This document shows positions 22,885 through 48,103 of a stretch of DNA of 64,000 bases, piece after piece; position 1 is the stretch's first letter; each line of letters begins with the position of its first letter. Source of the DNA: Candidatus Bathyarchaeota archaeon. Its GTDB lineage: Archaea; Thermoproteota; Bathyarchaeia; Bathyarchaeales; Bathycorpusculaceae. The stretch spans positions 448,001 to 512,000 of the forward strand of contig OY970176.1 of assembly GCA_963707955.1 (NCBI GenBank). The letters are read 5' to 3'. Below the pieces are notes generated by a model. That model ran no database searches and was not told the origin of the DNA. It saw only the letters and a list, made by a program, of their open reading frames with translations. Made by a program: the position numbers and the translations under genes.

Positions 22885-23943
22885 TTATTTGGGGACAGTT
22901 CTTCTTTTTCTCGACAGTACGATAACGCCGGCTGCGAGCGAGAGTGCAGCAAATATGATGGGCAGCGTAAGGATCGGGAATTCTGGAACGACGGTGTATG
23001 CAAAGTTTAGCGTGTTATTGTCCTGCACGCCCTCGATTCCTACCTGGTTAAAAGCAGTTATGTTGTAGGTCACGGTGGTTCCATTTGCGAAGCCGGGTAT
23101 ATGTGTTTCGTAGAGACTGTTTGTAGAGTTGAAGGTCATAGGCAAATCGTACCATGTTGTATCGTTCGTGTAGGAAAGCGTGACGTTCTGGACGCCCGTT
23201 GGGTCGGTTACGTTTATTCCGACGTAGACTGGTTCACCGGGTTGAACAGTGTATTGGTCAGGTGTTTGAGTTGGCGTACCCATCGTTGGGGGTGCAGCTG
23301 TAAGGGTGAACAATCCTGTTTCTAATTGTGGTACATCACTTCCCGAGGGCCAGTAGTAGTCACCACTCCAGGCGGGGTCAAACGAGAAACCGAAATTTAC
23401 TTCCGGCGTTGTCGAGTTTAGCTGAGCTATTATTTTAAACTCTATTTGCATCAGTGTACCTGTTCCGTTGAAGGACCATTCGGGACTGCCCTGTGCGTAT
23501 CCGCAGCCGCACTCGAGGATTTGATAAGTGTCATTATGGATATCGATATTAAATGCCGGGATTAGTACGTCACTTGCAGCTGCGACAGCTCCACTGAAGA
23601 CGTTGTCTGATGGAAGCCAATGGTTGACATATTGGAGTGTGGTGTTATCGAACACTAAGCCTGCTCCCCAACCGTACAGGGATGCGGTGGCGTTGGTAGC
23701 TATTGTGAGGTTTACGAAGAATGTTGAGCCGATGTCATTCGAATTGAAGGTGAAGTTTGAAGTGCCGAGATCGGTTGCGTCTGAAGAAGCGTTCCATTTT
23801 GACGGATTAGAGCTGGGTCCTGGGTTGACTATTGACAAGATTGGGGGATAAGGGCCTGTTTGAGCGAAGGCAACGTGCGTAGTTATTGGTAGCGCCAGTA
23901 GAATGGCCGATAGAACTGCAATCATTATTATTTGCGTTTTCAT
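22885..23943 (-). CDS. Cohesin-like domain + Ig/FN3-like domain + PEF-CTERM-type anchor
   Basis: Signal peptide; TFFVNLTI...LYGWGAGLVFDNTTL...FNGTGTLMQIEFKI cohesin pattern; ends VVPEFP-TM-RKRR. Confidence 0.85.
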   Translation of the reverse strand: MKTQIIMIAVLSAILLALPITTHVAFAQTGPYPPILSIVNPGPSSNPSKWNASSDATDLGTSNFTFNSNDIGSTFFVNLTIATNATASLYGWGAGLVFDNTTLQYVNHWLPSDNVFSGAVAAASDVLIPAFNIDIHNDTYQILECGCGYAQGSPEWSFNGTGTLMQIEFKIIAQLNSTTPEVNFGFSFDPAWSGDYYWPSGSDVPQLETGLFTLTAAPPTMGTPTQTPDQYTVQPGEPVYVGINVTDPTGVQNVTLSYTNDTTWYDLPMTFNSTNSLYETHIPGFANGTTVTYNITAFNQVGIEGVQDNNTLNFAYTVVPEFPILTLPIIFAALSLAAGVIVLSRKRRTVPK

Positions 23944-24029
23944 TTTTTCGACTCCTTCTGCAGTTTTTATATGTATACCTATTTTAAGTTTACGTATTCC
24001 TTCCGTGCTACCAGATTCCAAAACGCAAT

Positions 24030-25220
24030 CTAGCGGATCTTGCCCCTGCGCATCTTCAACCTTTCCCGTGTAAAGAGAACGGAGAAGAAACATATTACAG
24101 CGACCACGTAGGCCATGAACATTATTCCGAGCGGCGACAGGAGCATTATTGAGATAAGTTGACCCATGTATTCGAGCGTGCTGATTCTTCTATCAATGTA
24201 GATTACTATCGAGAATGTGTTGTATTGTGTGTTGTTTTGGCCCTGCAGAGGCTGTATCTGAGCTTCTATCGTGTATGATCCTACTGTAAGGTTGCCAGGA
24301 ATCTTCCAAGTGTACACGTAATAGTCGGTTGCGTTAGGAAGGAGAGTCATGCTTCCTCTTAAGAGTTCAACACTATTAGAATGGAACGTTTCCGAAACGT
24401 TGAAGCTGAAGGTTTCTAAATCGGTCCCATTGTTCGCGAAGCTCGTTGTGATCGTCAAGTTGTCGCCCCGGTAAACATTCGCTTCGTCAAAGCTTATTCC
24501 CGTCACCGAAACGGCTACGATCGTCTGGGATATTGCCTGCGAACCAGAAATGCTCACCGTGGCTGGCTCAGTCAACACCTCAGTATAGCTTGTGGACGGA
24601 TAAATGAAGATGAAAGAAGTAAAGTAGCCCATCGGACTGTTCGGGGAGAGTTGCTTTAGGATATTCAAGTTCGTACTCAATGTCTCTGTTGCGTTGGGAG
24701 TAACAGCAATCGTGAAGTTTGCGTAGAACAAGAGTCCTTCAGTTTCCACGTTTACCGGATAAAAAGGAGGATAGCTTAATGTGTAAAGATCCGAGCAACC
24801 GATGGTTAAGTAGCCTGTGTTAGTTAAATTGTCATAATCCGTTTCTGGTGAAGTTGGAATGAGCGTTGCACCGTTGTCAGTGGCTGGTTTGAACACGTTG
24901 TCGGTGGGTATCCACGCTGTGGCAAAATTTATTATGTTGTTGTCCCAGGTCAGTTCAACCTGCCAACCTGTCAGGTTTGTGACGGTTCTTATGCAGATTG
25001 CCGCGGTGAATGTGGTGTTGATGGGGTAGTCGATCGAGTTGAACTTGAAGGTGCTTGCGTTGGTCGGAGAAAGCGGGTTGATAATCACCATGGTCGGATA
25101 TTGAGACTGTTGAGCTGCCGCTGAAACCCTTTCTGTTTGTGTGGTAACAATCATTAAGAGTATGATTAGCAGGAACAAGGTTTTCAGCGAGCGCGGCTTA
25201 GCATCACCCAAATTGACCAC
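24030..25220 (-). CDS. Cohesin-like + CARDB-like domain, C-terminal TM
   Basis: VTNLTGWQVELTWDNNII cohesin pattern; N.GTDLETF...YTW...GSYTIEA CARDB pattern; TM + basic tail. Confidence 0.82.
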   Translation of the reverse strand: MVNLGDAKPRSLKTLFLLIILLMIVTTQTERVSAAAQQSQYPTMVIINPLSPTNASTFKFNSIDYPINTTFTAAICIRTVTNLTGWQVELTWDNNIINFATAWIPTDNVFKPATDNGATLIPTSPETDYDNLTNTGYLTIGCSDLYTLSYPPFYPVNVETEGLLFYANFTIAVTPNATETLSTNLNILKQLSPNSPMGYFTSFIFIYPSTSYTEVLTEPATVSISGSQAISQTIVAVSVTGISFDEANVYRGDNLTITTSFANNGTDLETFSFNVSETFHSNSVELLRGSMTLLPNATDYYVYTWKIPGNLTVGSYTIEAQIQPLQGQNNTQYNTFSIVIYIDRRISTLEYMGQLISIMLLSPLGIMFMAYVVAVICFFSVLFTRERLKMRRGKIR

Positions 25221-28837: not shown

Positions 28838-30403
28838 CTAAATGTATTTTCCGAAGTTTACGAGAACGATGACGACGTCGCTCATGTCGACTTTTCCCTG
28901 TTGGGTTATGTCGCACGCTGGGTTCCAGTTTGGCTTGCTTGGTGTTGAGCCGAACGCTATTAGAACCAGCACCACGTCTGCCATGCTAACCCTTCCGTCA
29001 CCGTTCACGTCTGGGCTTAGTTGTTGCGGTTTAGTCAGAACGTATACTGTGTTCACTGCAGAGCTCTGTGAGCCTAGTGAGTCTGTGATTGTCAGCGTGA
29101 CCGTTGCGTTGATTGAATTTTGATAGATGTGGGTTATCGTTGGTTGAGACGTGTTCTGTACGGTTCCATCCCCGAAGTTCCACTGAAAGTTTACTATCGT
29201 CGTGTAGCCTGTTCCGTTCCATCCGGGTCGTGATGTTGTAGCGTTAAACGTCGCTGTCTGTAATACTATGGGGAACTGTGCGGTCCACGTGAAGGCGGCT
29301 GTCGGTGCTAGTGTGCTGTTGACCCGGATGGACTGTGATATCGTGTTCGAAAGGCTCTGGTTGTCTGTCACGTTCAGCGTCACCGTGTAGGTCATGTTCG
29401 AGTTGAAAGTGTGTGTTACTCTCGGGGTCGGCGGGTTATTGAATGTGCCTTTGTTTATCACCATTGGCGTTCCATCTCCAAAATTCCATGCATATTGAAT
29501 TATTGTGTTGTTGAACCCATGCGCAAGCGAGGGTGACCCGTCGAATGTTGTGGCAAGGTTCACGGCAGTTGGGTCTGGGCTATAAACGTAGCTTGCAACT
29601 GGAGGAAGTGCCTTGGCTGTTAAGCTGAAACTCAGGTTAACAGTGACTGGCCCGCCGTTCTGGTAATTCGTTGTGGCATAAACGGTCCACGTGCCCGGTT
29701 GGGCTAGCGACATGGATATCGGCAGGGTGAAGTTTGGTGGTGTTGGGTTCTGAGGAGCAGGTGTCGAGGGCGTCACAATCGTGAAGTTGGCTTGTGCTTC
29801 TGGGCAGAGAGGATACCCTCCGTCTTGAGGTGCCTGAGTGTACACATTTGCGTACACGTTCGTAAGGCCTGTTGGTGCGTTGACGGGTATGTAGATTGAT
29901 GATTGAAAGGTTTCGAGAGTAAATGCCTCCAGTTGAGTTACGCCGAATGGATAATAAGCTTCATAAGGAATGTTGTTTGAGAATTGAATGTACAGGGCTG
30001 GCATGACGTATATTGGACTGCTACCGTTGTCGATCATCAGAATTCTCACGTTTGCCGTAGAGCCCCTTTGGAAGAGCGTTTTAGGGTTTCCCAGCGAGTC
30101 GCAAGAGTATACTGCTGTTATGATGACTGGCCACCCTGAACTTGGTACTGTGCCGGTGCTTACGGTTCTGAGAACCATAGTATTGCCGCCTGGAGACACC
30201 ATCTGAACCGCGACTAAAGCATCACTTACCAGACCGGTGCCGTACGTGACGTTTCCGGTTATGTGCACGGTGTCTCCTGTCTGATAAGTCGTATGATCAG
30301 TAGACACGTTCACGAAAAGAAAAGTTGCCTGCGCCGAGTGAAGCAAGACCAAACCTGAAGCAAGCACAAGCAACAAGGGTATGATTTTCTTTTGAAACTT
30401 CAT
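28838..30403 (-). CDS. Secreted protein: N-terminal Ig-like module, 2 PKD domains, C-terminal dockerin
   Basis: VSTDHTTYQTGDTV start; two WNFGDG PKD cores; PDVNGDGRVSMAD...CDITQQGKVDMSD...NFG. Confidence 0.88.
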   Translation of the reverse strand: MKFQKKIIPLLLVLASGLVLLHSAQATFLFVNVSTDHTTYQTGDTVHITGNVTYGTGLVSDALVAVQMVSPGGNTMVLRTVSTGTVPSSGWPVIITAVYSCDSLGNPKTLFQRGSTANVRILMIDNGSSPIYVMPALYIQFSNNIPYEAYYPFGVTQLEAFTLETFQSSIYIPVNAPTGLTNVYANVYTQAPQDGGYPLCPEAQANFTIVTPSTPAPQNPTPPNFTLPISMSLAQPGTWTVYATTNYQNGGPVTVNLSFSLTAKALPPVASYVYSPDPTAVNLATTFDGSPSLAHGFNNTIIQYAWNFGDGTPMVINKGTFNNPPTPRVTHTFNSNMTYTVTLNVTDNQSLSNTISQSIRVNSTLAPTAAFTWTAQFPIVLQTATFNATTSRPGWNGTGYTTIVNFQWNFGDGTVQNTSQPTITHIYQNSINATVTLTITDSLGSQSSAVNTVYVLTKPQQLSPDVNGDGRVSMADVVLVLIAFGSTPSKPNWNPACDITQQGKVDMSDVVIVLVNFGKYI

Positions 30404-30516
30404 AATGCAATCCCACACTTTTTCGTGTGTGCTCAACAAGATAAGCATTATGGAATGTTATTCTATTCCTGGCTAAACAAAAATAAAAAGGGGGGAAATA
30501 TGTTTTTCTCAGTTTA

Positions 30517-32547
30517 CTATGGCGGTGCTACTATTGCGAAAGTCGTGTCTGCTTCTGGACAGTACGGCACTCCGCCGAAGATTGGATAGTTGCTGAAAGC
30601 GTCAGCGTAAGCCGTTCCTTGTCCAACAACCGCGTTTGTAGTCAAGGGTATTACGAATTCATCTGTCCACACGTTGGGTACGTTCCAGGTTCCTGTCACC
30701 GGTATCAGCTTAGATATCTCTGCATGGCCTATGAAGAATCCTAGATTATCAAAGGCGCTCACGGTTTCAAGCACTGTGATATTGTAGTATACGGTCACGT
30801 TGTATACTTCCAGGGGGCTCACGCCTTCGCCTCCGTAGGCGAGCGGCGGGTAGGTATTCTGCATCTGGTACGTCTCGTACGTCACCGTGAATTTCATAGC
30901 GGGCTCTGTACCTGGGCCGTACTTGCTCTGCACGTATGTATCGTTCGATACGATGCTCAGTATAGAGACTGGGTATTGTACCTCGAATTGCATTATGTCC
31001 ATGACTTCCCCTTGAGCTATTTCCGTAGTTGCATACGCGGTCCAGATGCCCAGAACTTGTTGTGGGTCAACGCATGGCCATGGAATTCTATAGCAAACCA
31101 TTGCTATACCGTTAGAATCCGAAAACGCGCTCAGGAAAATGGGCCCGTCTAATTCTGTTGCAGTTGCAGGTGGCACTATTTCGAAGCCCACCGGTTTCTG
31201 TTGCACAGGGAAGCCGTTGTAGGTCACGTTGGCGTAAAGACACACTTCTGCTTGTGGTGCGAACGCGTCGCTCGGTCTGGCCGGTCCTTGTCCACCGTAC
31301 GGCGATGGATACTGGTCGTACAGGTCTACCGCCCTGCCCGTTACTATCTGAGGAGCAGTGTACGAGCCGTCTATCTGTGGTGCGATGTTGATTGGTTGGT
31401 CAAAGGCGTTGTAACATTCCATGTCGTGAAGTGTGAGCGGTATGGTGAGTATTGCTGGGAATAGTGTGCCGATGGCTGCTTGGAACTCGAATGTGTAGAG
31501 TACGCCTCCTCCGCTTGGAAACGGTGCATACCATAGCCCACCAGTGCCGGGCACTATTGCCTCGAACGCCAACCACTTGTTGTAGCCAGGTCCAGGCAAT
31601 GAAAAGTCAGCTGGATAATAGAAGTCGTCTTCAGCAGCGTTGATGGCTGTTTCGCCGTTGGTTAAGAACCCGTTTATCCATGTTCCAGGGAAGGATGCTA
31701 TGGGCGTAATGACCGACTGGTTGAACCATAGGCTAAACTGGAAGCCGATGATCGACCATGCTGCACTTACATTGCCGACATACACGCTTATGTTAAAGAG
31801 TTGGCCAACCGTTAGAGCCGCGTACGTCGATGGTACAACGTAGAAGTACGGATAGGTTGTTGGTGCAATCCAGTCAAACTCGAAGTAGCCCGTTCCCATG
31901 TTGTTCGCTGGCCCTTCCGATCCCGATGGATAGAAGTATAGACTTGTCCAAGCTGGGTCGAACGAGAATGCTGCACTTATGTTGTTGTTCACGATGGTCG
32001 CTTGCGGTATTATGCTGAACTCTATTTGACCCAGTACGCCTGTACCGTTGAAGGTCCAAGCAGGCGTAGGTTGCGTGTACGAGGCACCCCACTGTACTTC
32101 CTGATGATTAGCATCTACAGGTGCAATTACTGGCGAAGGCGCTATGAGGCTTCCACCAGCGGCTACTGCACCAGCAAATACGTGGTCAGCTGGGAACCAG
32201 GCGTTTACGTACTGTAGGGTGGCGTTGTTGTATACGAGGCCGATGCCCCAACCGAAGAGGTTCGAAATGCCGCCTGCCTGCACAGGGTTTCCAACGGTAA
32301 TGTTCAGGAAGAACGTGTTGCCCGCGCTTGTGTCCGTAGTGGTGAAAATGAAGTTGCTAGTGCCCTGGTTTGCTACATCTGGCCCTGCATTCCATCTTGA
32401 AGGATATGATGCAGGTCCCGGGTTGACGATATCGATGTAATCGTTTGCCTCTGGCTGAGCCTTTACGAAGTGGACGCTTGCTAACATTGACATCATAAGT
32501 ATGGCAAGAACTGCTGTAGTTAACACTTTTAATGCTGCTTTATTCAT
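30517..32547 (-). CDS. Secreted protein: 2 cohesin-like domains + conserved C-terminal module; S-layer/scaffold candidate
   Basis: Signal peptide; LFGWGIGLVYNNATL and IIGFQFSLWFNQSVI cohesin patterns; C-terminal module shared with the 33307 gene; no anchor. Confidence 0.85.
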   Translation of the reverse strand: MNKAALKVLTTAVLAILMMSMLASVHFVKAQPEANDYIDIVNPGPASYPSRWNAGPDVANQGTSNFIFTTTDTSAGNTFFLNITVGNPVQAGGISNLFGWGIGLVYNNATLQYVNAWFPADHVFAGAVAAGGSLIAPSPVIAPVDANHQEVQWGASYTQPTPAWTFNGTGVLGQIEFSIIPQATIVNNNISAAFSFDPAWTSLYFYPSGSEGPANNMGTGYFEFDWIAPTTYPYFYVVPSTYAALTVGQLFNISVYVGNVSAAWSIIGFQFSLWFNQSVITPIASFPGTWINGFLTNGETAINAAEDDFYYPADFSLPGPGYNKWLAFEAIVPGTGGLWYAPFPSGGGVLYTFEFQAAIGTLFPAILTIPLTLHDMECYNAFDQPINIAPQIDGSYTAPQIVTGRAVDLYDQYPSPYGGQGPARPSDAFAPQAEVCLYANVTYNGFPVQQKPVGFEIVPPATATELDGPIFLSAFSDSNGIAMVCYRIPWPCVDPQQVLGIWTAYATTEIAQGEVMDIMQFEVQYPVSILSIVSNDTYVQSKYGPGTEPAMKFTVTYETYQMQNTYPPLAYGGEGVSPLEVYNVTVYYNITVLETVSAFDNLGFFIGHAEISKLIPVTGTWNVPNVWTDEFVIPLTTNAVVGQGTAYADAFSNYPIFGGVPYCPEADTTFAIVAPP

Positions 32548-32570
32548 TTTTCTTCTCCCTTCTCCTTTTA

Positions 32571-32614
32571 TCAGCAATACCTAGTTCTCGCCTTTGGATT
32601 TAAGTATTACGGAA
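32571..32614 (-). promoter_or_regulatory. Promoter/leader conserved with 48133-48177
   Basis: TTCCGTAA...TTAAAT...GGCGAGAACTAGGTATTGCTGA versus TTCCATAA...TTAAAT...GGCGTGAAGTAGTATTTGCTGA. Confidence 0.65.
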
Positions 32615-34683: not shown

Positions 34684-34888
34684 ATGGTTTTGCCTGAAGG
34701 AGACCAAGCACAGATCTCATGATCTTTACAGATGAATTTTCAATCAGCGTAGCGAAATCTCAATTTGAAGAGTCGATAATCAAATGGCGGACTTCTTCAA
34801 ATTTGCATTAGAATATGAGTGTGCGTGTTTCCGCACTGTGTAAGCACGCTTGTCTTCGATTTTTCTAGCCGAAGTCGTGTGTAGAGAC

Positions 34889-36580: not shown

Positions 36581-39239
36581 GTGAGATGGAAATTGTTCAG
36601 GGATTTGCCTTCAGCAATCCTGCTGACGCTCCTGCTGACGCAGGGGATGATTTGGGCCTCTGCGGCTGGAACGTTCAATCTTCAGGGCCAAGGTCCTGTG
36701 TCCGTGCTGATGATTAACCCTCTATCTGGTGACGGCAATTTTGATTTTAGCTCTGCCGATTATCCTGTTAGCAGCAATTTCACAGTGGAGTTCTACATAA
36801 CAGAAGTCATGAACCTTTCCGCATGGCAGATCTACGTTTCATGGAATAACAGTATAATCCATTTTGGCGCGGCTTGGATACCGGAGCAGAACGTGTTCCA
36901 AGAAGCAATTAACAATGGGGCAACGCCGCTTGAGGCACAAGATCTTGAAATCAACAAGAGCTCCAACGTTGGATATTTTCTCTATGGTATGACCACGCTT
37001 TACATGCCGGACGTTTCCCACACGTACCCGGTGAACGTTACAGGTCAGGGATTGTTAGGCAGCATAAACTTCACAGTCGCCGTTGCTCCAGAAGAAGCCG
37101 AAGACCTAACGACGAACCTCGAAATGATAGAACAAACAACCGACGCCCCGCTTGGTTACTTCATGTCGTTCATACAGCTTTGCGAGGATGGAGCCGTCAC
37201 TTCGCCTATCGGAGTATCAGCTCAGCCAGCAGATATAACGATATATGGACCCGCCCCGACCATCCACATAAGAGACTGCAGGAAACGTTGACCCAGAGAC
37301 AGCGCCTATAACGCGCAACGGAGGTACTTACACCTTTACTGGAAACATCTCAAACATAATCACCGTGGAAAGAGATGACATCGTCCTTGACGGAGCGGGT
37401 CACACTCTTCAGGGCACAGGAAATGAAACAGGAATAAGCCTGACATCTAGAAGCAACGTTACTATCAATAACCTGCAAATCACGGGATTCAGCATTGGCA
37501 TACTTCTAAATTCTTCCAACACTGTCATAATTTCAGAAAACAACATAACAAACAACGATGGAGGAGTTAATCTTTTCAACTCTTCCGATAACAGTCTATC
37601 CTTGAACACTTTGTCAAACAACGAATATGGCGCTATGCTCGATTCCTCCTCATGTAATAACACCGTATGCGAGAACAACATAGCAAGAAACGGCCAGTGG
37701 GGCGTAGGCCTATGGTCCCAGTCCAACTGTAACAGCCTGCTTCAGAACACCATCGCAGACAACGGGTACGGCATCTGGCTGTGGAGCTCCTCCGACAATA
37801 ATACCATATCCGGAAACAGCATAACAGCAAACGGCGAAGGAGGCATCTGGCTGTGGATCTCGTCAAGCTACAACATCATCGTTGGAAACGACATAACAGC
37901 AAACAACTGGTACGGAATAGGCTTATGGTCCCAGTCCAACTGTAACAGCCTGCTTCAGAACACCATCGCAGACAACGCGTACGGCATAGAATTTTGGGAC
38001 CAGTCCTCAAGCAACGCGGTCTACCACAATAACTTTGTAGCAAACCAGAAACAGGTTCAGATTTTTAACTCCAGTAACCTGTTCGACAACGGGTATCCAT
38101 CAGGGGGAAACTACTGGAGCGATTATGTGGGCAACGACAGCCAGTATGGACCGGCACAAAACATTAGCGGTAGTGATGGAATAGGGGACACGCCACACCT
38201 GATGAGCGAAAGCAACGCTGATCATTATCCCTTAATGGCTGAATTCTTGGCCTTCAGCACTTCATCGGGATGCGACGTGGAAGCAATTTCCAACTCGACA
38301 ATACTGGATTTTCAGTATTTTAGCAGAAATAGCACCATCAGCATTCAAGTCTCAAACGCGACCAATGATCAAACTTACGGCTTTTGCAGACTTGGAATTC
38401 CGCGTTCAGTCCTGGTCCCACCTTACACAGTAACTGTCAGCGACAGCCCAGTGCAGTACGCCACCTTGTTGCAGAACGAGTCTTTCAGCCTAATTTACTT
38501 CACTTACCAACAGACGACACACGAGATCACAATACAAGGACAGGACATCACGCCGCCGACGATACTGATCTTACAACCCGAAAACAAGACGTACTCGGTG
38601 AACAGTACATCCTTAACCTTCACGGTTGACAAGCCGACTTCATGGATAGGCTACAGCTTCGACGGCCGAGCAAACGTGACCATCAACGGAAACGCCACTC
38701 TCGCGGACGTTAAAGATGGATTCCATGATATAATTCTCTACGCGAACAGCACAGCGGGCATCACGGGCTGGTCAAACATCACGTGGTTCGCAGTGGATAC
38801 GACCCCTCCAACAATCACTGACGTATACCAAGATCCACCTTCAAACGACGTGTCACCCAAAGACACCGTAAGGATCAACGTAACAGTCAACGACGGCGTA
38901 AGCGGCGTAAAGCAGGTCATTTTGAGCTACGCTACAAACAGCGGAACATGGGTTTCAGTCAACGCCACAAACCTGGGACAAAACATCTTCAACGCAGCCT
39001 TACCGCCATTCCCATCCGGCACGAATGTCACGTACATGGTGACAGCCATCGACAACGTCAACAACACAATCTCAACCCAGCAAATGGGTTACGAATATCA
39101 ATATCACGTAATCCCAGAACTTCCAACAATGCTGACTCTGTTCCTCCTCATGGCTTCAACCCTGTTTGCAACAATAGTCTACAAAAGAACAAGAATCAGA
39201 CAAATCAAAAAACACTGTCTCGTCCTCATCAGAGAGTGA
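36581..39239 (+). CDS. Cohesin-like + NosD-like beta-helix + Ig-like domains + PEF-CTERM-like anchor (IPEL); +1 frameshift at ~37271
   Basis: ORFs 36581-37291 and 37365-39239 join when one A is removed (TIHIETAGNVDPETAPITRNG...VERDDIVLDG); NLSAWQIYVSWNNSII cohesin pattern; GYPSGGNYWSDY; VIPELP-TM-KR. Confidence 0.82.
37711..37764 (+). repeat. 54-nt exact repeat, second copy at 37924-37977
   Basis: Encodes LWSQSNCNSLLQNTIADN twice within the beta-helix. Confidence 0.9.
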
Positions 39240-39588
39240 AAAGGGCCTCGCTCAGTTGCCAACAGCGTAAAGATGCGCTTTGTCCATAAATGACTCTGAA
39301 AAGCGCGCGCCTCTACGTCTTTAACCGCAATTTGCCATCCGAGCCTTGGAACCGATTCATCTAACCGCCAACAGCACAAACCATTTTAGGAATCGAGGTC
39401 AGAACCGAAAATTCGGTCCACTTTTCTTCCAGCATCTTCAAAGCAAAATGAGAGTTGAGTAAAACCAAAAAAGTTTTTCATGCACTTCCAAGAGCGCTTC
39501 ACGTCATAGCTTCAGGAACAAGCATGCGCGCTCTGGTTTCCGCAAGGGTTATTTTAGAGTAAGGCATCTACAATTGTGAGAGAGAAAA

Positions 39589-40362
39589 TTGCTTAAGAAG
39601 ACAAGCTTTGGATTGTCGTCGGTGATGCTGTTAGCGATCGTGTCAGCAATGGTGCTTTCGGCTGCTTTCCATGCTGTGCCGGTGGAGGCACAAACATCGG
39701 CTGTTACTGGAGAAATTGTGAATCCACTCCTTGAAACCAATGATTTTGCTTTCAATTCGAGTGTTTATCCTTTTAACAGCACTTTTACTGTGGATTTCTA
39801 CGTTGCCAACGTGAGCAACATGGTGGCTTGGCAGATTTACATATCTTGGAACAACACCATGATCAATTATGACACAATTTGGATACCGGGGGTAAACTCT
39901 CCTGGAACCAACGTGTTCACACAAGCGTTTAATAACGGTGCAACGCCCATTCCGGCAGGTCCCAACGTTGCATTTGACACCACTACGAACACTGGGTACC
40001 TGTTTTATGGCCTAGCGAACTACTACCAGCCAGCTAATAATCACATGGTTGCTGTGAACGTAGAGGGCTTAGGGTTGTTATGCAGCGTGAACTTCACGAT
40101 TCAAGTAAATGTTGCAAGGGCCAACATTTTGCATGGGACGATAAATAATTTGGACTCAAGTTCGGGGCTGTCGACCTATTCTGCAGTATTTAATGCGAGC
40201 GATTATGAAACACAGATTTCAGCGGAGCCAGCGACATTGGAAATCTACGGGTCGGAGGCCTTAATCCTTGAATTTACACCTTGGATGGTCATGCCCTTTT
40301 TCATTGTGGCAACGCTGTTGGCAGTGTTGCTTCACCGAAGAAAGAATAGGTGGCCAAAATAA
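39589..40362 (+). CDS. Single cohesin-like domain with PEF-CTERM-like anchor (ILEF)
   Basis: Signal peptide; STFTVDFYVANVSNMVAWQIYISWNNTMI; LILEFTP-TM-RRK. Confidence 0.82.
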   Translation: MLKKTSFGLSSVMLLAIVSAMVLSAAFHAVPVEAQTSAVTGEIVNPLLETNDFAFNSSVYPFNSTFTVDFYVANVSNMVAWQIYISWNNTMINYDTIWIPGVNSPGTNVFTQAFNNGATPIPAGPNVAFDTTTNTGYLFYGLANYYQPANNHMVAVNVEGLGLLCSVNFTIQVNVARANILHGTINNLDSSSGLSTYSAVFNASDYETQISAEPATLEIYGSEALILEFTPWMVMPFFIVATLLAVLLHRRKNRWPK

Positions 40363-40878: not shown

Positions 40879-41976
40879 TTAGGCCTTTCCAGTCACTGCA
40901 TAGCACGCCACGTAATGCCCTTTTCCGACGTCCACAAGCTGGGGCTCCTTGTGCGGGCACAGCCCGCTCATTGCACTCGGGCACCTCGGGTGGAAGCGGC
41001 ATCCGCTGGGGGGGTTTATTGGGCTTGGAACATCACCCTTCAAAGGAGCGCGTACTCTACGCTTCGTCGGGTCGGGCAGAGGTATTGAAGCCATCAAAGC
41101 CTGCGTGTACGGGTGTAAAGCGTTACGGAATATTTCATTGGTGTCCGCTAGCTCCACTATTTTTCCAAGGTACATGACGCCAACTCTGTTGCTTATTACC
41201 TCTACCACACTTAAATCGTGACTTACAAAAATGTAGGTGAGTCCTAGGTCTTTCTGCAATTTCACGAACATGTCAAGCAGTTGAGCTCTCACTGAAACAT
41301 CAACTGCCGACGTGGGCTCGTCCAGAACAACAAATTCTGGATGGGTCACAAGAGCCCTTGCCACAGCAACCCTCTGCCTCTGCCCGCCGCTGAATTCATG
41401 CGGGTAACGGAACAAGTGCCTCTCGCTCAGGCCCACTTCTTGCAACATTTCCAGCGTTCTGTTCCTGGCAAGTTGACCCTTCGCGACACCCTGCGCTATC
41501 AGCGGTTCAGAAACTATGTCTTTAATGAGCATTCTAGGGTCTAAAGAGGTGGTGGGGTCTTGATAGACTATCTGCATTTTTCTCCGCAACTGGCGCAACC
41601 TGTGACCCCTATACTTTGCCAAGTCTGTTTTAGACCGTAATATCCTCAAGCGATTCTTCATTCTTGAAAGTTCCTGTTTCTCTATGCCACTTGGGGGACC
41701 TGCGATTTTCTGCTCCAAATCGCCTATCTCTTTGAGCGTCGCCTGTGGGACATCAAGGTAGATTTGTCCAGAAGTTGCAGGGTAGAGCCTTATAATGGTC
41801 TTGCCCAACGTTGTCTTTCCGCAGCCCGATTCTCCCACGACCCCGAAGCATTCGCCCTTAAATATTTCAAGGTTCACGTCGTCCACGGCCCTCACATCCG
41901 CGACCCGTCTCCTAAAGACGCCGCCAAACACTGGAAAATATTTTTTAAGATGCCTAACTGTGAGCAGGGTGTCCAT
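40879..41976 (-). CDS. oppF: Oligopeptide/dipeptide ABC transporter ATP-binding protein
   Basis: GESGCGKT, YPHEFSGGQRQR, DEPTSA and C-terminal GCRFHPRC. Confidence 0.92.
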   Translation of the reverse strand: MDTLLTVRHLKKYFPVFGGVFRRRVADVRAVDDVNLEIFKGECFGVVGESGCGKTTLGKTIIRLYPATSGQIYLDVPQATLKEIGDLEQKIAGPPSGIEKQELSRMKNRLRILRSKTDLAKYRGHRLRQLRRKMQIVYQDPTTSLDPRMLIKDIVSEPLIAQGVAKGQLARNRTLEMLQEVGLSERHLFRYPHEFSGGQRQRVAVARALVTHPEFVVLDEPTSAVDVSVRAQLLDMFVKLQKDLGLTYIFVSHDLSVVEVISNRVGVMYLGKIVELADTNEIFRNALHPYTQALMASIPLPDPTKRRVRAPLKGDVPSPINPPSGCRFHPRCPSAMSGLCPHKEPQLVDVGKGHYVACYAVTGKA

Positions 41977-41977
41977 T

Positions 41978-43175
41978 CTAGCTCCTCCGGTCATGGGACG
42001 TATAGAGGAAGCACGATGCGTAATGGTTTTCCTTCACTTCCACGAACGGCGGCTTCACCTCTCTACACACGTCCATTGCGTACCTGCAACGGTCATGGAA
42101 CCTGCAACCTGGAATAGGATTAATCAAGCTGGGAACAGTTCCGGGTATAGATTTCAACGGTTTTCCAGGGCTCGGTATTGATTCAAGCAACGCCTGCGTG
42201 TACGGGTGGATGGGCTCCGCAAAGATCTTGTGGACTTCGGCCATCTCAACTGCGTTGCCCGCGTACATTACGACGACACGGTCGCAAAGTTGAGCCACCA
42301 CGCCGAGGTCGTGAGTTATGTACAGGATGGAGGATTTTCTTCTCTCTTTGAGCGCTGACACGAGTTCAAGTATTTGGGCTTGCACGGTCACATCCAAGTT
42401 TGTTGTGGGCTCGTCGCAGATCAGCACCCTAGGATCACACGCAAGAGCCATGGCTATTACCATGCGCTGAGCCATGCCGCCGCTGAGCTCGTGGGGATAC
42501 ATGTGTGCCACTCTTTCTGGATCTGCAATCTGCATATCTTCGAGTAGTCCTATAACTTCCTTGTGAACTTCTTTCTTCAACAGCTTCCCAAATCTACGGA
42601 CAATTGGCACTTTAGACAGAAATCTCACGTAGCGATCGTTAGGGTTCTTTGCCATCCTCTTGTAAACGCTGATGTTGAACTTAAGGATCCTGTTCAAGAA
42701 TGGATCAGCTTGATAAAGCAGGCTTTCCCCTCTTCTTGCGTATTCCTCGGTCAGCTGATCCAGTACTCTCCGAGCAAATTCTTGTTTCCTGTGAACCATG
42801 ATCACTTCGGTGATCTGGTATTCCACGTTGTACACTGGATTGAGATAGGCCCTTGGCTCCTGAAAAACCATTGATATTTCATGGCCTCGGATTGTCCTCA
42901 GAAAGTCCTGCTTTTGATTGAGCAGATTGAGTTGCTTTCCTTTATAATCAAATAGTATTTGCCCGCCCTCTATTTTTCCCGGTGGCATGACGATGCCCAT
43001 CAGTGCCAGGGCCGTGACGCTCTTGCCGGCAGCCGGTCTCACCAACGACTCCTAGAACCTCGTCTTCTTTGAGGTATAGGCTCACGCCGTCCAGTGCTTC
43101 GACAACACCTGCGTACGTGTAGAAACGCAAAACCAAACCGTCAAACCTTACCACTTGCCCGCTTTCCAATTTCAT
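41978..43175 (-). CDS. oppD: Oligopeptide/dipeptide ABC transporter ATP-binding protein; +1 frameshift in Walker A at ~43030
   Basis: GVVGETGC|GKSVT is restored by removing one C; YPHELSGGMAQR, DEPTTNLDVTVQAQ and GCRFHDRC. Confidence 0.88.
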
Positions 43176-44332
43176 CTCCTCCTCAGCGTCGGGTCCAAGA
43201 TGTCCCTTACTGCGTCTCCAAGCAGGTTCCATCCGAGGCAAAATATGAATATGAAGGCACCGGGGATTATCCAGATGTACCAGTATAGACCTAGCGCGCC
43301 CGCCTGTCCTATGTAGTCTTGTGATTTCTGAACTAGCTGTCCCCAGTCTGCATAGTTTGTGGGAGCGCCTATTCCCAGAAAGCTCAGTGCTGCTGCGGTT
43401 AAAACTACTCCTCCGATGTCGAGTGAAGCCAAGATCAGTATTGGGTATATAGCGTTTGGGACGATGTGTCTGACCATGATTCTAATGTCTGAAGAACCCG
43501 AAGCTTTTGCAGCTTCAATATAATCCTCGTTTTTTGTTCTCAACACTTCCCCGCGTATGACCCTCGTGTACCCGGGCCACCCTACCAGTGTGAGCGCTAT
43601 CAGCACTTTGTCAAGCTTCCCGAGACTAAGGCCAAAGCCTATGTTTGGCAGATAGCTCGCAAGCACGGCAACGCTCAGGAGGATTGCCACCACCGCGGAT
43701 ATCAGCCATGCCATTGATCTTAGGCTTGTGATTCGCGCCCTTGAAAATGCCAGATTTGATATCGTTATTAAACTCAAGACAACCGCGATTATCGGTAGAA
43801 TATAGGCCACTCCAAGAATCAGGTTGTCCGGCAAGACTGCAACGAACACGATTGCTAAGACGAGGCCTGGAAAGGCGAAGATTATGTCAGTGAACCTCAT
43901 TAGCACTTCATCAATCAACCCACCGTAATATCCTGCAAGTATTCCGATGGTCAACCCTATCAACAACGACAATCCTACAACGATTATTCCCACACGGAAC
44001 GCGGTTATGCTTCCCCACACGCACGCATAATATATGTCATAATTATCCACGGTAAGACCAAACGGGCTGGTTGCGCTCGGCGGCGTCGGCACAGAAAACC
44101 ATGAGGAGCGGGGAATTGTAAAGGGATCGCGAACCTTCGTAATGTCCCAAGAAGGCTTCGGTGCGAGTATAGGAGCGGATGCGGCCATTATGACAAAGAA
44201 GACGATTATGAACACACCTACTAATGACAAAGGACTCCTTCTTATTCGGTAAAGCATGAATTTTAGCTCTGCCATCGTAGGCGATGCTGCCTTCTCGATT
44301 TTCTCCGGCTTTTTCTCTGATGTTTTAGCCAT
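43172..44332 (-). CDS. oppC: Oligopeptide/dipeptide ABC transporter permease
   Basis: EDYIEAAKASG, HIVPNA, AALSFLGIG and NLLGDAVRDILDP. Confidence 0.92.
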   Translation of the reverse strand: MAKTSEKKPEKIEKAASPTMAELKFMLYRIRRSPLSLVGVFIIVFFVIMAASAPILAPKPSWDITKVRDPFTIPRSSWFSVPTPPSATSPFGLTVDNYDIYYACVWGSITAFRVGIIVVGLSLLIGLTIGILAGYYGGLIDEVLMRFTDIIFAFPGLVLAIVFVAVLPDNLILGVAYILPIIAVVLSLITISNLAFSRARITSLRSMAWLISAVVAILLSVAVLASYLPNIGFGLSLGKLDKVLIALTLVGWPGYTRVIRGEVLRTKNEDYIEAAKASGSSDIRIMVRHIVPNAIYPILILASLDIGGVVLTAAALSFLGIGAPTNYADWGQLVQKSQDYIGQAGALGLYWYIWIIPGAFIFIFCLGWNLLGDAVRDILDPTLRRR

Positions 44333-44335
44333 TTA

Positions 44336-45385
44336 TTATCCCAGTCTTATCCTTGGGTCGAGATATGCGTAGAGGACGTCAACTAGCAGGTTTGAGATGA
44401 TGTATATGAAGGCCGTAAACAGCGTAAATCCAACTACCATAGGTACGTCAGGAGCCATGCCTCCCCCTGCGCCTGCGGCCCGAGCGACCAAGTTACCTAC
44501 ACCGGGGATGTTAAAAACTGTCTCGGTGATAACTAATCCACCCATCATTCCTGCAACTATCAAGCCCGAGATGGTAACCACAGGTATGAGCGCGTTCCTC
44601 CTTGCATGCCTGTTTATCACCTCTCTTTCCTTCAAGCCTTTCGCCCTTGCAGTTATTACGTATGACTTATTCAACGCTTCAAGCATGCTTGACCGCGTAA
44701 TTCTGATTAAAGCAGCCACATTCACCACAACGAGGCATATCACTGGGAGCACCAAGTGTTCTAAAGCGTCCACTACTATGTCCCAGCTTCCGTTCAGTAT
44801 GCCGTCTATGACGTACATTCCAGTGTAACTGTGCCAGTTTGTGTTCGCCCACACCTGGATTTGATGAGGTAAACTTAATTGTCCATACGAAAAAAACCCG
44901 AAGAGACCGAACGCTAAAGCAATGAGAATTAGAGCTAACCAGAACAATGGAACGGAGTAACCGCTAATGCTTAGTAACCGCGTGAAATGGTCGATCGGTC
45001 CATCCTTGTGTACAGCAGAAACCACTCCCAAAAGAATCCCAAACAATATTATGAAAGGCGATGAAAAGAGAACGATTTCAATCGTGGCAGGCCATGCATG
45101 CAGCATCACTTGAAGCACCGGTCCCATTCCAACATAAGAATAACCCAAGTTTCCATGAATTAACGAGTTGAACCAATCTGCAAACTGCACCCAAACCGCG
45201 CTATTCAAATGGTGCTGCTCAATAATTAGAGGTAGATTTTGAAGCTGCTTTTCATTTCTCACGTAGAGCATTGCTCTTGCAGTTGGACTAAGAAGTTGAG
45301 TGGTGGCAAAAACAAGCAATACTGCGCCCAGAGCCACGGGAATCACAAGCAGCAACCTTCTAATGATGTATTCCCTCAGTCCCAT
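44336..45385 (-). CDS. oppB: Oligopeptide/dipeptide ABC transporter permease
   Basis: YIIRRLL, TRSSMLE, YVITARAKGL, HARRNALIP and YAYLDPRIR. Confidence 0.92.
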   Translation of the reverse strand: MGLREYIIRRLLLVIPVALGAVLLVFATTQLLSPTARAMLYVRNEKQLQNLPLIIEQHHLNSAVWVQFADWFNSLIHGNLGYSYVGMGPVLQVMLHAWPATIEIVLFSSPFIILFGILLGVVSAVHKDGPIDHFTRLLSISGYSVPLFWLALILIALAFGLFGFFSYGQLSLPHQIQVWANTNWHSYTGMYVIDGILNGSWDIVVDALEHLVLPVICLVVVNVAALIRITRSSMLEALNKSYVITARAKGLKEREVINRHARRNALIPVVTISGLIVAGMMGGLVITETVFNIPGVGNLVARAAGAGGGMAPDVPMVVGFTLFTAFIYIISNLLVDVLYAYLDPRIRLG

Positions 45386-45565: not shown

Positions 45566-45607
45566 TGAGCTTTGCTGTTGTTCGTTTTGTCTGCTGTTTC
45601 TCGCGTG

Positions 45608-48103
45608 CTACGGAATACCGTACCACACGCCGTACTGCCAAGCACCGTTTCCGGTGCCGCTCACAGTGTCCACTTGGCCGAAGTGCGATAGGATCGTCAC
45701 TATGTCGCCCATGTTGATTACTCTGTCAGTCCATTCTAGACGTGGTGTGCCGATGATGTCACAGAAGAAGTTCCATCTTGCCTGCATGAGTGGCCAGAAA
45801 CCTCCTCCTGAGCCGAATTGGCCGTAGTAGGATCCGAAGGCTTTCAGTGCGTCGATTACGTCTGCCATGTTAACTGCGCCGCTGCGGTCCACGTCGCCCG
45901 GTATGCCGTTGTACTTCCACAGGTTGTAGGCGTAGAGTCCTGGGTAGAGTGGGTTGTAGTAGTGTCCCTGCACCCAGTCTCTATGGAAACCCGTGCCTAC
46001 CGGCGTCATCAGGGTGACGCTTGGCACGTCGTTGTAGTAGATTGATTCCACTTGGTAGTAGTCATTTTGTAACGTCGTCGGGTCGTTGGTGTACGCTGTT
46101 ACTTTCAAGAGCGCGTCCACTGTCGGGTTGCTGTATGATGTGAACGCGGCGTACTCGTTCCCGGTTTCCATGTATGGGACCAAGAAGTCTTGTAGACCAG
46201 AGTAGTCTGCGAGCCATCCAATCATGAATTCTGGTAGTTTTCCAAACGTCATGTCGGTGAGCTCAGTGCCCCAGACGCATCCTTGAGATGATGCGTGGAA
46301 GTTGGGGTTGAGACTGTTGATCATGACTGCCAAATTGTCCATCATGTTCTGCCTTGGACTGTTTCCAATGTTGTAGAGTAACTTTATTGTGAACCCGATT
46401 GAGGTCAGGTTAGTGTTCGCTAAAGCCATGTATGCTGCTGCCTGTGCAAGGTTGATGCTGTATGTTGCCTGCGCAGGGTTGATGTATGGAAAGCCGTTCG
46501 GTGCGCAGGTGATTGGCTCATAACCTCTGCCATAGAACTGGGTCTGTATGTAGTACGTCTCGTTTATGCAATAGGCGAACATCTTGCGGATGTTTACGTC
46601 GGCAAAGAAGTTGCTCGGAATACCGGTACCCGTCCAGACTCCCGCAGGATCTATCTCACCATACGCGCCAGTGACGTTCGTTTGTATGGCTTGGTTCATG
46701 AAGAACGATTCAGTCGCCACTGATGGAATCGGATAGTTGCATTGTATGCCGGGCTTTGTGGGGTCATTAACCACCCGCGGATCGCTTAGCGGGTACGGTG
46801 AACCTGTGAAAAGATTCTGCGAAGCAAGGGCCATCGGCGTGTAAGCAAAGTCAGCTGCTCCGGCGACTAAGGCGGCCAAGCCACCAGCTGTAGCGATCTG
46901 CGCGACTACAAATGTGTCCACCCAACCCTGTGGCTTAGTAGGTGGGCTGTTTGCGCTGTTTGGCGGCTGGTAAGGCGTGTTTGGCCATGATGCCGGCCAA
47001 CCTCCCCAGTAGCCTGGGTCGGCGCCGGTGAACCTCACCATGACGTATGCGCCGTCGAGTGCTGGGTTGTAGGATTGCAGTATGTAGGGGCCTGTTCCGC
47101 ATGTGACACCGCCCGCCACTTCGTCGTAGATTGCAATGCCTGGGCTATAATACATTGACCAGTTGTTCCAGTCGTCGAAGGTCCATTCAATCTCGTCGCC
47201 AGTCCCTCCAGTCAAAGCGTCGGTTACACCGTGTGCGTACAAGTATGGGATGAGGTAGCCGAGCGTCCATTGGTAGCTTACGATGCTTGCCCATTGTTGC
47301 GCCCACACTTGGAAGAACGTGTTCAACGGATAGTCTATGGGCAGAGCGCCTGTGGCAGTCCAGAAGTTGGGGTTAAAGCTTCCATCGGGCATGAACATGT
47401 TCACTGAATTAGAAAATGTTGCTGCCGCGACTGCGAAGCCTTGGTTTGGAATGTTGAACCAGCAGTCAGTGCTGTTGTACTGTACAGCTCCCATGAGATG
47501 CGTCTGGAAGGTGGAGTTTGTCAGGTCGGCCGTGGTTATTGAGTCTTGGAGCAGCAACGCGTCGTATATCAGCCAGTAACTGCCCTCGTTCGAGTAGGCG
47601 TGAACCAGGTTGCGGTCGAAGCTGTAGGCAACGTCCTCCGGCGTTAAGTAGTACTGAGCCCAGGTCAGGTTGCCCGCGTCAGCTCTGCTCCAGGTTTGGA
47701 ACGGAACGTTGGTGCGAATCTTGAAGTCAACCGTGAAGTTCGTGTATGCTGGAGATCCCGCGATTGGAGGTTGAACAGTCACCTGTGTAGCGAGCATTGC
47801 TAGGTACTCGTTGGAAACTCCACTGTTTGGTACGTTGCCGCTTTGTTCACCGTTGAAGAAGATGAGCGGATCGTACGCGTTCATTAACAGTTCTGCCGAG
47901 GCTGTGTCGTACTCCGCAGCGGGGTCAAGCGTAGCTGGGCCACCGCCTCGAAGCGTGTCTTCAACGAGCGTGTTCGGGTTCTGTACAGCGCCGCCTGCGC
48001 CTGTCGGTGCGGTCGGTACTGTAGCGATTACTGGGTACATGATCATCGGTAGTACCATTATGAAAGCCATAGCGATGCCTAACATCACATATATTTTATT
48101 CAT
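45608..48103 (-). CDS. oppA: ABC solute-binding protein (family 5, OppA/DppA-like) with C-terminal dockerin
   Basis: PATLDPAAEYDT, LTPEDVAYSFDR, GTGPYIL, FADVNIRKMFAY, GWLADY; then GDVDRSGAVNMAD...AFGS...RWN...CD...DRVINMGD...HFG. Confidence 0.88.
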   Translation of the reverse strand: MNKIYVMLGIAMAFIMVLPMIMYPVIATVPTAPTGAGGAVQNPNTLVEDTLRGGGPATLDPAAEYDTASAELLMNAYDPLIFFNGEQSGNVPNSGVSNEYLAMLATQVTVQPPIAGSPAYTNFTVDFKIRTNVPFQTWSRADAGNLTWAQYYLTPEDVAYSFDRNLVHAYSNEGSYWLIYDALLLQDSITTADLTNSTFQTHLMGAVQYNSTDCWFNIPNQGFAVAAATFSNSVNMFMPDGSFNPNFWTATGALPIDYPLNTFFQVWAQQWASIVSYQWTLGYLIPYLYAHGVTDALTGGTGDEIEWTFDDWNNWSMYYSPGIAIYDEVAGGVTCGTGPYILQSYNPALDGAYVMVRFTGADPGYWGGWPASWPNTPYQPPNSANSPPTKPQGWVDTFVVAQIATAGGLAALVAGAADFAYTPMALASQNLFTGSPYPLSDPRVVNDPTKPGIQCNYPIPSVATESFFMNQAIQTNVTGAYGEIDPAGVWTGTGIPSNFFADVNIRKMFAYCINETYYIQTQFYGRGYEPITCAPNGFPYINPAQATYSINLAQAAAYMALANTNLTSIGFTIKLLYNIGNSPRQNMMDNLAVMINSLNPNFHASSQGCVWGTELTDMTFGKLPEFMIGWLADYSGLQDFLVPYMETGNEYAAFTSYSNPTVDALLKVTAYTNDPTTLQNDYYQVESIYYNDVPSVTLMTPVGTGFHRDWVQGHYYNPLYPGLYAYNLWKYNGIPGDVDRSGAVNMADVIDALKAFGSYYGQFGSGGGFWPLMQARWNFFCDIIGTPRLEWTDRVINMGDIVTILSHFGQVDTVSGTGNGAWQYGVWYGIP

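Follow-up and report, generated by a model that had tools for sequence, protein, structure and literature searches.

A candidate non-cellulolytic cohesin-dockerin tethering system around an Opp-type importer in Bathyarchaeia

The 64,000-nucleotide stretch of DNA analyzed here, referred to as the window, is part of the chromosome of a Candidatus Bathyarchaeota archaeon (contig OY970176.1 of GCA_963707955.1, positions 448,001 to 512,000), whose assembly, in the following G000, consists of a single contig of 2.35 Mb. At about 14.1-48.1 kb of the window resides an island of secreted and membrane proteins, flanked by genes for RNA polymerase subunits, FttA, a proteasome subunit and an ATP-dependent DNA ligase. 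We consider it probable that this island encodes a non-cellulolytic cohesin-dockerin system for surface tethering around an Opp-type peptide importer, in which anchored cohesins hold the importer's binding protein, an adaptor and further cargo. The cohesins amount to nine modules of three classes (A, B and compact), distributed over six window genes. Open reading frames (ORFs) are named by their lowest window coordinate (o22885 and so on), and two relatives are referred to repeatedly, G010, which belongs to the same genus as G000, and G018, which belongs to another genus of the same family.

Results

Enlarged and compact cohesin modules

A preliminary description of the island had proposed about nine cohesin-like domains in six genes. 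All nine are supported by the present analysis, with evidence of unequal strength: one by Pfam, one by phmmer, six by homology within an enlarged class together with a structure model, and one by a model of moderate confidence. Whole-protein Pfam scans of the six proteins returned no cohesin, neither at E <= 0.01 nor at E <= 10. This result was not taken as a refutation, since an isolated slice does pass Pfam and since fold and homology evidence is available in addition. The slice in question, at about residues 245-358 of o25792, scored 31.1 bits in isolation and 30.6 bits in the genome search, above the gathering cut-off of 24.1 bits for Cohesin (PF00963); the remaining eight cohesin slices gave no match to this family at E <= 10.

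Six N-terminal domains are mutually homologous by BLAST and span approximately 190 residues, about 50 above a typical cohesin. They comprise the A class (o22885 residues 75-270, o25792 36-222 and o30517 42-238) and the B class (o24030 36-230, o36581 30-225 and o39589 35-225). The A-class domain is marked by an invariant NPGP..P..WNA lead-in; the additional residues of the A and B domains include a conserved NPGPSSxPSxWNAS lead-in. BLAST E values were 3e-12 for o24030-o25792, 1e-42 for o24030-o36581 and 4e-35 for o39589-o24030, and a local cohesin profile recovered o24030 and o39589 with independent E values (i-E) of 5e-43 and 1.7e-39. An AlphaFold2 model of the o22885 A-class domain, built on 26 sequences, reached a pLDDT of 87.5 and a pTM of 0.85. 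When this model was searched against the PDB with Foldseek, the listed ranks 1-24 were cohesins or cohesin-like (best 6kgf_C, E 1.7e-8), the first other fold being an integrin at rank 26. A Foldseek-independent structure search (VIA; 48,161 chains) returned exclusively cohesins at ranks 1-19 (Z 13.6-10.2, root-mean-square deviation (rmsd) 2.6-3.4, 129-149 residues aligned; 143/144 residues at an rmsd of 2.8 for 6kgc_A), followed by pilin and adhesin domains, with the first non-cohesin at Z 10.0. The model thus predicts that the A-class domain folds as a cohesin, and the other five enlarged domains are putative cohesins through their homology to it.

The enlarged class is also linked to recognized cohesins by sequence profiles. 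Among the secondary matches of a local enlarged-domain profile are cohesins validated by Pfam (i-E 6.2e-7 and 2.8e-4). In the homolog P0020, the enlarged domain itself reaches 25.7 bits against Pfam Cohesin (8/21 homologs scanned), and the enlarged-class homologs L024 and L030 exceed the cut-off with 39.6 and 35.2 bits. Against 1.84 billion representative proteins, the A-class profile gave 425 matches at E <= 1e-3, and of 60 sampled core-only matches 30 carried Pfam Cohesin (best 9.9e-27) and 14 Dockerin_1. The domain-only A-class profile gave no match to PDB sequences at E <= 1; a profile that included full-length homologs matched only dockerins there, through its added dockerin columns, and is uninformative on the cohesin.

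The third module of o25792 (residues 452-605) is a near full-length phmmer match to Pfam-validated cohesins of a paralog and of homologs, with i-E values of 2.9e-11 to 5.4e-10 in a local database of about 20,000 sequences. By Pfam, phmmer and homology, o25792 is therefore well described as an adaptor with three cohesins and a dockerin of its own, as had been proposed. The second module of o30517 (residues 239-420) found only its own orthologs in sequence searches, with no detectable link to recognized cohesins; in the Protein Atlas, which provides a lead only, the best cluster with a family assignment has Cohesin in 13% of its members (score 0.87). For a model of this module built on 11 sequences, every row listed by Foldseek was a cohesin (best 2xdh, E 2.2e-7, target TM 0.76), and cohesins occupied ranks 1-19 in VIA (Z 13.6-10.0). 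Cohesins thus top both fold searches for both modeled domains, ahead of the generic Ig or CBM (carbohydrate-binding module) sandwiches that the preliminary description had named as the alternative. Its reading of o30517 as a free two-cohesin protein likewise stands, as neither an anchor nor a dockerin was found. The Ig/macroglobulin-like C-terminal region of o30517 is shared with o33307 (BLAST E 3e-24), a protein in which we found no cohesin or dockerin; the Protein Atlas lead for this region, again a lead only, is to Ig/macroglobulin-like archaeal surface proteins.

In a tree of 22 modules the compact, B and A classes separate (support 100/99, 99/99 and 81/92) and the A-class copies group by genome, not by position; long branches were flagged, and the three-class split is the only reliable part of this tree.

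Dockerins and their carriers

Type I dockerins consist of two tandem 12-residue calcium-binding loops, each followed by a helix. Three C-terminal dockerins with duplicated loops had been described for the island. Those of o25792 (39.9 bits) and o28838 (26.2 bits, 9e-6) pass the Dockerin_1 cut-off (PF00404, 22.9 bits), and the former matches the Cel48 dockerin chain 2y3n_B with an E value of 1.7e-8; the tail of o45608 fails Pfam and was recognized as a variant by BLAST alignment. The loop duplication holds for o25792, where DVNGDGKVDISD and DVNADGIVNMAD are both canonical in the alignment. It does not hold in this form for o28838, whose second loop DITQQGKVDMSD reads DITQQG, nor for o45608, where the canonical first loop DVDRSGAVNMAD is followed by an interrupted second one.

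The o45608 tail aligns with the two other window dockerins at E values of 1.6e-7 (o25792) and 3e-6, its last 109 residues spanning the whole o25792 dockerin at 40% identity. It is distinguished by two insertions, one of 12 residues in the linker and one of 7 residues in the second loop, and by an extension at the C-terminus. All seven of its matches among PDB sequences are dockerins, albeit weak (best E 0.015, first repeat only). Tails of this type, with both insertions, occur at 68-100% identity across 10 protein clusters, for which the precomputed annotation gives SBP_bac_5 in nine and Dockerin_1 in none. On these alignments, the o45608 tail is predicted to be a conserved variant dockerin.

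Across G000, Dockerin_1 has 18 matches, 15 of them over the cut-off, and almost every one lies some 60 residues before the C-terminal end of its ORF. The domains found in the carriers are PKD, NosD/beta-helix, PQQ-propeller, C39-like peptidase, CARDB and Ig; none is a glycoside hydrolase. The statement in the preliminary description that no such enzyme is visible extends beyond the island, as no such family was detected in 37 scanned window ORFs or in 15 ORFs with dockerins or cohesins elsewhere in G000. Window proteins contain no CBM above the Pfam cut-off, the sole match of this type being CBM_56 with an E value of 6.4. The enlarged cohesin occurs in nine ORFs of G000, six of them within the window.

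The dockerins of G000 differ in flavor. Most of them end in FGQHYP and show AFGST.GQ.RY.PNCD, whereas a smaller group, to which the window dockerins belong, reads AFGSYP.HPRWNP or AFGSTP..PNWNPACD..QQG; judged from these motifs, the flavors may correspond to different cohesin classes. Elsewhere in the genome, the L003 protein (G000:C1:2132124-2134679) has a dockerin together with four PKD domains, and its compact cohesin-like stretch at residues 462-594, missed by Pfam, matches the Pfam-recognized cohesin of o25792 with an i-E of 1.8e-5.

The solute-binding protein

The OppA-like protein o45608 has a signal-like N-terminal helix, the variant dockerin tail, and no C-terminal transmembrane segment. 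A C-terminal hydrophobic helix is absent from all 10 tail-bearing clusters (maximum hydropathy 0.91 or less). The second SBP_bac_5 protein of G000 does not have the tail and instead possesses a strong N-terminal helix.

Membrane anchors, a split gene and putative sorting tails

In four window proteins, a single cohesin is joined to a membrane helix at the C-terminus. This agrees with the four anchored single cohesins of the preliminary description for o22885, o24030 and o39589, which have a signal-like N-terminus and a C-terminal hydrophobic helix in the transmembrane scan; o36581 as written has no such helix, which is found only in the 885-aa gene described below. The predicted segments are located at residues 352-386 in o24030 and 224-251 in o39589, as well as 408-442 in the cohesin-free o33307. 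Translation of o22885 probably begins at Met51, yielding a protein of 352 aa as in its homologs.

Complementary to the missing helix of o36581, the downstream o37365 has no signal peptide, and in the frame +1 to o36581 the sequence continues with the lead-in that normally precedes the beta-helix domain. At window position 37275 there is one base extra compared to contigs of three public sediment-metagenome runs (X1, X2 and X3), with depths (with the change/total) of 32.9/32.9, 3.7/3.7 and 6.91/6.91; a fourth run has no coverage at this position. If the base is left out, o36581 and o37365 form one ORF of 885 aa that ends in a C-terminal helix. Since the run contigs do not contain the extra base and the 885-aa frame is open, we regard the two as one gene that was most likely split by an indel in the assembly; other such frameshifts may exist in this single-contig genome. 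No clear ortholog with fused cohesin and NosD parts was found in five relatives, which have 4-30 NosD/beta-helix paralogs per genome.

A regular-expression survey identified tails in which PE[FL] is followed by a hydrophobic stretch and then a basic cluster in 15 ORFs of G000, including o22885 (tail at 22885-22990) and o37365 (39140-39239), compared to 0/1166 internal control windows. G000 contains one match to the Exosortase_EpsH family (31.4 bits, cut-off 25.7) at G000:C1:1889899-1890663. PEF-CTERM is listed as InterPro IPR017474 in Table 2 of PMC5244752. It might be speculated from these patterns that the tails and the exosortase-family gene represent a PEF-CTERM-type sorting system in Bathyarchaeia. 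An NCBIfam scan of 13 proteins gave no match to PEF-CTERM or another sorting signal, and processing by an archaeosortase is therefore a lead only.

Conservation of the island

Among species-representative genomes, relatives of the A-class domain were found at 16 loci, 15 of them from metagenome-assembled genomes (MAGs) of Bathyarchaeia/Bathyarchaeota and one on a 5-kb contig binned as bacterial. The A-class cohesin closest to ours outside the genus (52% identity) is encoded by L016 (DASPPK010000073.1), a 5-kb contig of a MAG named 'Candidatus Acidiferrales bacterium'; the contig was probably misbinned, and a true copy in a bacterium is less likely. Of 41 genomes, that is G000 and 40 relatives, 22 match the A-class profile, and the full-length enlarged cohesin occurs in G000, G010 and G018 only. 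Adaptor-type proteins with cohesins, CARDB and a dockerin are present in other Bathyarchaeia as well.

The gene order SBP-OppBCDF-o30517-o28838-o25792-o24030-o22885 (SBP, solute-binding protein) is the same in G018. The synteny comprises ten gene pairs at 37-68% identity, four of them for OppBCDF and six for island proteins; the four importer proteins are 58-68% identical to their counterparts, and o28838 has a full-length ortholog at 46%. Two further island genes of the window have counterparts elsewhere in the G018 island, bringing the overall identities to 31-68%: o20456 has an ortholog at 41% identity (L038:12718-13986), and o35484 corresponds to a protein of likewise 238 aa that adjoins the SBP gene (L038:14007-14720, 31% identity, E 9e-14), so that a protein of this length neighbors the importer genes in both genera. 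The window differs from G018 by the plus-strand block 33307-40362, located between OppF and o30517.

In G018, the cohesin proteins of 380, 265, 353 and 775 aa all have a C-terminal helix (4/4), and the dockerin-bearing binding proteins have an N-terminal signal-like segment only. There are three dockerin-bearing SBP_bac_5 proteins in this genome, one of which also carries a cohesin. The G018 subtilase (Table 1), with an enlarged cohesin and a dockerin, could by its domain content both plug into the scaffold and extend it. At another G018 locus, L041:853-3975 (G018:C1, approximately 949.9-953 kb), an SBP_bac_5 protein has the order SBP_bac_5, dockerin, B-class cohesin, dockerin; such a receptor, with two plugs and one socket, could form chains of its own copies or connect further parts of the system.

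Pfam leaves about 1,600 residues of the flanking o14148 protein unmatched; this protein and the remaining features are included in Table 1.

Table 1. Features of the island in the window and of the corresponding island in G018.
Feature	Position	Strand	Content and evidence
o14148, 2014-aa surface protein	14148-20192	-	N-terminal signal, one PKD, InlB B-repeat-like near C-terminus, C-terminal helix
o20456, NosD/beta-helix membrane protein, flanks island	20456..21931	+	Pfam NosD 1.5e-16
o22885, anchor protein	22885..24093	-	signal, A-class cohesin 23284-23871, Ig-like, VVPEFP + helix + RKRR tail
o22885, likely true start	23943	-	352-aa homologs
o24030, anchor protein	24030..25220	-	signal, B-class cohesin 24531-25115, CARDB-like (weak, E 0.052), C-terminal transmembrane helix
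o25792, adaptor, 990 aa	25792..28764	-	signal, A-class cohesin 28099-28659, no transmembrane anchor
o25792, compact cohesins	27655-28098 (Pfam), 26950-27411 (phmmer)	-	Ig/PKD-like module between
o25792, C-terminal part	dockerin 25795-25998	-	three CARDB, then Dockerin_1 (Pfam)
o28838, cargo	28838..30448	-	signal, beta-sandwich region, two PKD (PKD_4 5.9e-23), dockerin 28841-29041
o30517, secreted two-cohesin protein	30517..32577	-	A-class cohesin 31864-32454, divergent compact cohesin 31318-31863
o33307, membrane-anchored beta-sandwich/CARDB-like (weak) protein	33307..34683	+	BLAST, transmembrane scan
o35484, 238 aa	35484..36200	+	hydrophobic helices at N- and C-terminus (transmembrane scan); no known domain
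o36581+o37365, 885 aa without base 37275	36581..39239	+	signal, B-class cohesin 36668-37255, NosD/beta-helix, Ig-like
o36581+o37365, C-terminus	within 39140-39239	+	IPELP + helix + basic tail; Pfam NosD 2.8e-40
o36581 and o37365, ORFs as written	36581-37291 and 37365-39239	+	junction near 37275
o39589, anchor protein	39589..40362	+	signal, B-class cohesin 39691-40263, C-terminal transmembrane helix
OppF, OppD, OppC, OppB	40879..45385	-	Opp/Dpp-type ABC importer
Two Opp ATPases	40879-41994, 41978-43045	-	Pfam ABC_tran, oligo_HPY
Two Opp permeases	43172-44332, 44336-45385	-	Pfam BPD_transp_1, OppC_N
o45608, OppA-like family-5 solute-binding protein	45608..48139	-	SBP_bac_5 1.1e-18; tail 45611-45937; ATG 48103
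G018 island, part 1		one strand	S8 subtilase, beta-helix + cohesin + dockerin protein, NosD protein, 238-aa protein
G018 island, part 2		one strand	SBP_bac_5 with dockerin tail, OppB, OppC, OppD, OppF
G018 island, part 3		one strand	counterparts of o30517, o28838, o25792, o24030
G018 island, part 4		one strand	265-aa cohesin protein, o22885 counterpart, 775-aa cohesin protein
G018 S8 subtilase, 2190 aa	L038:1490-8059 (G018:C1, ~59.5-66 kb)		five CARDB, enlarged A-class cohesin, C-terminal dockerin

Discussion

The preliminary description had concluded that anchors, an adaptor and cargo are all encoded in this island, and judged by the predicted domains this parts list is right. In the scheme that we favor, the island proteins would be exported and the anchor proteins would display their cohesins on the cell surface, some of them perhaps being processed at the PEF-type tail by an archaeosortase-like enzyme. 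The binding protein o45608, o28838 and o25792, together with about a dozen dockerin proteins encoded elsewhere in the genome, would plug into the anchored cohesins, probably with Ca2+, and the adaptor o25792 would multiply the docking sites. The dockerin of o45608 would take the place of the lipid or membrane helix of other archaeal binding proteins and keep the receptor near OppBCDF; a dockerin-bearing protease, where present as in G018, would sit beside it. The suggestion that the island might serve as an uptake platform has gained support from the gene order kept in another genus, from the tailed binding proteins that are without an anchor in all 10 clusters, and from the G018 subtilase with its dockerin. 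Going further, it is a tentative proposal that the dockerin has replaced the anchor of an importer's receptor, that this receptor sits non-covalently on membrane-anchored stalks whose enlarged cohesin class had not been recognized before, and that these stalks and, in G018, the dockerin-bearing peptidases form a modular capture-and-import platform for detrital protein in Bathyarchaeia.

Several points weigh against tethering around the importer. Every cohesin-dockerin binding step in the scheme is one that we infer from sequences and models. Structure models cover two of the nine cohesin modules, the A-class domain of o22885 and the second module of o30517, and the latter model is of moderate confidence (pLDDT 72.1, with three of five models at 67.2 or below); the B class is assigned by homology. 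The o45608 tail gave no match to Dockerin_1 in whole-protein or slice scans, its second loop is broken by seven residues, and some homologs of the tail have lost calcium-ligand positions in the first loop; therefore, this tail may bind neither a cohesin nor Ca2+. The i-E of 4.4e-22 that it obtained with the local dockerin profile is circular, as o45608 is part of that profile. The N-terminal hydrophobic segment of o45608 might moreover stay uncleaved and act as an anchor, in which case no tethering would be needed. No dockerin is detectable in the sole subtilase of G000, and thus a link to a protease can be drawn for G018, but not for this window. Being relatives of G000, G010 and G018 do not provide fully independent support, and the same applies to the three runs that argue for the repaired gene, which all come from one study and possibly from the source sample of the assembly. 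Among the listed public runs that match the locus, there is no RNA run.

Three other explanations were weighed. The cohesin-dockerin pairs might mainly link cells to cells, to partners or to particles, the position of the Opp genes being incidental or secondary. PKD, CARDB, beta-helix and propeller modules would suit adhesins, most of the cargo in G000 is adhesin-like without a recognizable enzyme, giant surface proteins such as o14148 (2014 aa) flank the island, and cell-to-cell contact has been proposed for ANME (anaerobic methanotrophic) proteins with dockerins and cohesins (PMC5244752, as far as covered). We nevertheless regard adhesion as the main role as rather unlikely, given that the Opp operon, the dockerin-tailed binding protein and the cohesin genes stand in the same order in two genera and that the tail is specific to binding proteins without an anchor in 10/10 clusters. 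The two roles are mutually compatible. More improbable still appears a scenario in which the enlarged A and B domains have been re-used as structural or self-associating units of the envelope and only the compact cohesins bind dockerins. Such a change of function would be in line with the roughly 50 extra residues including the NPGPSSxPSxWNAS lead-in, with Pfam recognizing none of the six A/B domains and a profile search of PDB sequences giving no match, and with the grouping of A-class copies by genome in the tree, and likeness in fold does not show likeness in function. Yet the anchored proteins of both genomes carry A/B cohesins only; thus, if these did not bind, about 15 dockerin proteins would be left without a route to the surface. 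In addition, relatives have proteins in which the A class and dockerins are found together.

It is very doubtful, finally, that the island is a decaying, non-functional remnant with the o45608 tail and the split o36581/o37365 as relics. The frameshift at 37275 and the failure of the tail in Pfam would fit such decay, but the frameshift is absent from the contigs of three runs and the repaired frame is open over 885 aa, and the tail is conserved at 68-100% with its insertions in 10 clusters, the other genes being intact and syntenic. Tethering around the importer is thus the explanation that we retain.

Bathyarchaeia are abundant in sediments. The island represents a compact, conserved test case, with four anchors, one adaptor and a binding protein whose dockerin-like tail is the only visible means of retention. 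When the modules of the preliminary description are checked against Pfam, one of nine cohesins and two of three dockerins pass, the other eight cohesins and the o45608 tail giving no match; surveys based on Pfam or InterPro would therefore under-count such systems in Bathyarchaeia. If true, the capture-and-import reading would give archaeal cohesin-dockerin pairs a defined and testable physiological role.

Comparison with known systems

The island shares with bacterial cellulosomes the two module families, and the modeled folds match cellulosomal cohesins with Z up to 13.6. It also resembles them in having three tiers, namely an anchor, an adaptor that itself bears a dockerin, and cargo, as set out in the covered parts of PMC9012536 and as generally known. 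In contrast to cellulosomes, the window proteins include no glycoside hydrolase and no CBM above the Pfam cut-off, the anchors end in C-terminal membrane helices instead of SLH domains or sortase signals, the adaptor has at most three cohesins, and the cargo includes the binding protein of a transporter. Judged by its gene content, the island is like a cellulosome in assembly logic and, because it has no glycoside hydrolase, is not a cellulosome. An archaeal cohesin from outside a cellulosome, 2xdh of Archaeoglobus fulgidus, is structurally similar to the o22885 model (Z 12.7) and to the o30517 module (Z 13.6), and is compact with 138 residues. To our knowledge, A. fulgidus has few modules of this kind and no multi-gene island around a transporter.

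A cellulosome-like complex degrading polypeptides and polysaccharides has been proposed for Ca. Stygibacter (Cloacimonadota), in which S8 and C25 peptidases bear the dockerins and a scaffoldin the cohesins, which resembles the subtilase island of G018 (PMC8542988). Unlike our system, it is bacterial and has a scaffoldin of 3,755 aa with CBMs as well as glycoside hydrolases, and the covered passages of PMC8542988 report no dockerin-bearing binding protein of a transporter.

The closest likeness is to the networks described for ANME archaea. In the parts covered, Chadwick et al. 2022 (PMC9012536) report 'scaffoldin-like' proteins in which one dockerin is combined with as many as five cohesins, as well as binding proteins of the NikA/OppA and TroA types that bear dockerins; Timmers et al. 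2017 (PMC5244752), likewise in part, describe dockerin and cohesin domains as abundant in ANME-1 and ANME-2a and suggest adhesion. According to both, it is unknown what cohesin-dockerin pairs do outside cellulosomes. Like the island, these networks are archaeal and non-cellulolytic and include a dockerin protein with multiple cohesins and a dockerin on a binding protein of the OppA/NikA type, and o25792, with three cohesins and a dockerin, and o45608, with SBP_bac_5 and the variant dockerin, fit this description, which is a descriptive grouping and not a curated family. As here, function has been deduced in ANME from domain annotation only, according to the covered text. ANME archaea belong to the Halobacterota, in contrast to the Bathyarchaeia island, and, as far as described, their networks differ from it, since the island has enlarged, Pfam-invisible cohesins on its anchors and a variant, Pfam-invisible dockerin on its binding protein; annotation of domains as practiced for ANME would thus have recognized one of its nine cohesins and two of its three dockerins. 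A conserved gene order with OppBCDF is documented here; the S4 Data of the ANME study may hold comparable operons. No title or abstract found in our literature search describes such a system in Bathyarchaeia. The principle has already been put forward for ANME archaea (PMC9012536, as covered), and the island is a new lineage's version of this known archaeal arrangement. Its features of interest, as predicted here, are the enlarged cohesin subfamily and the variant dockerin, both invisible to Pfam, and their conserved linkage to an Opp importer.

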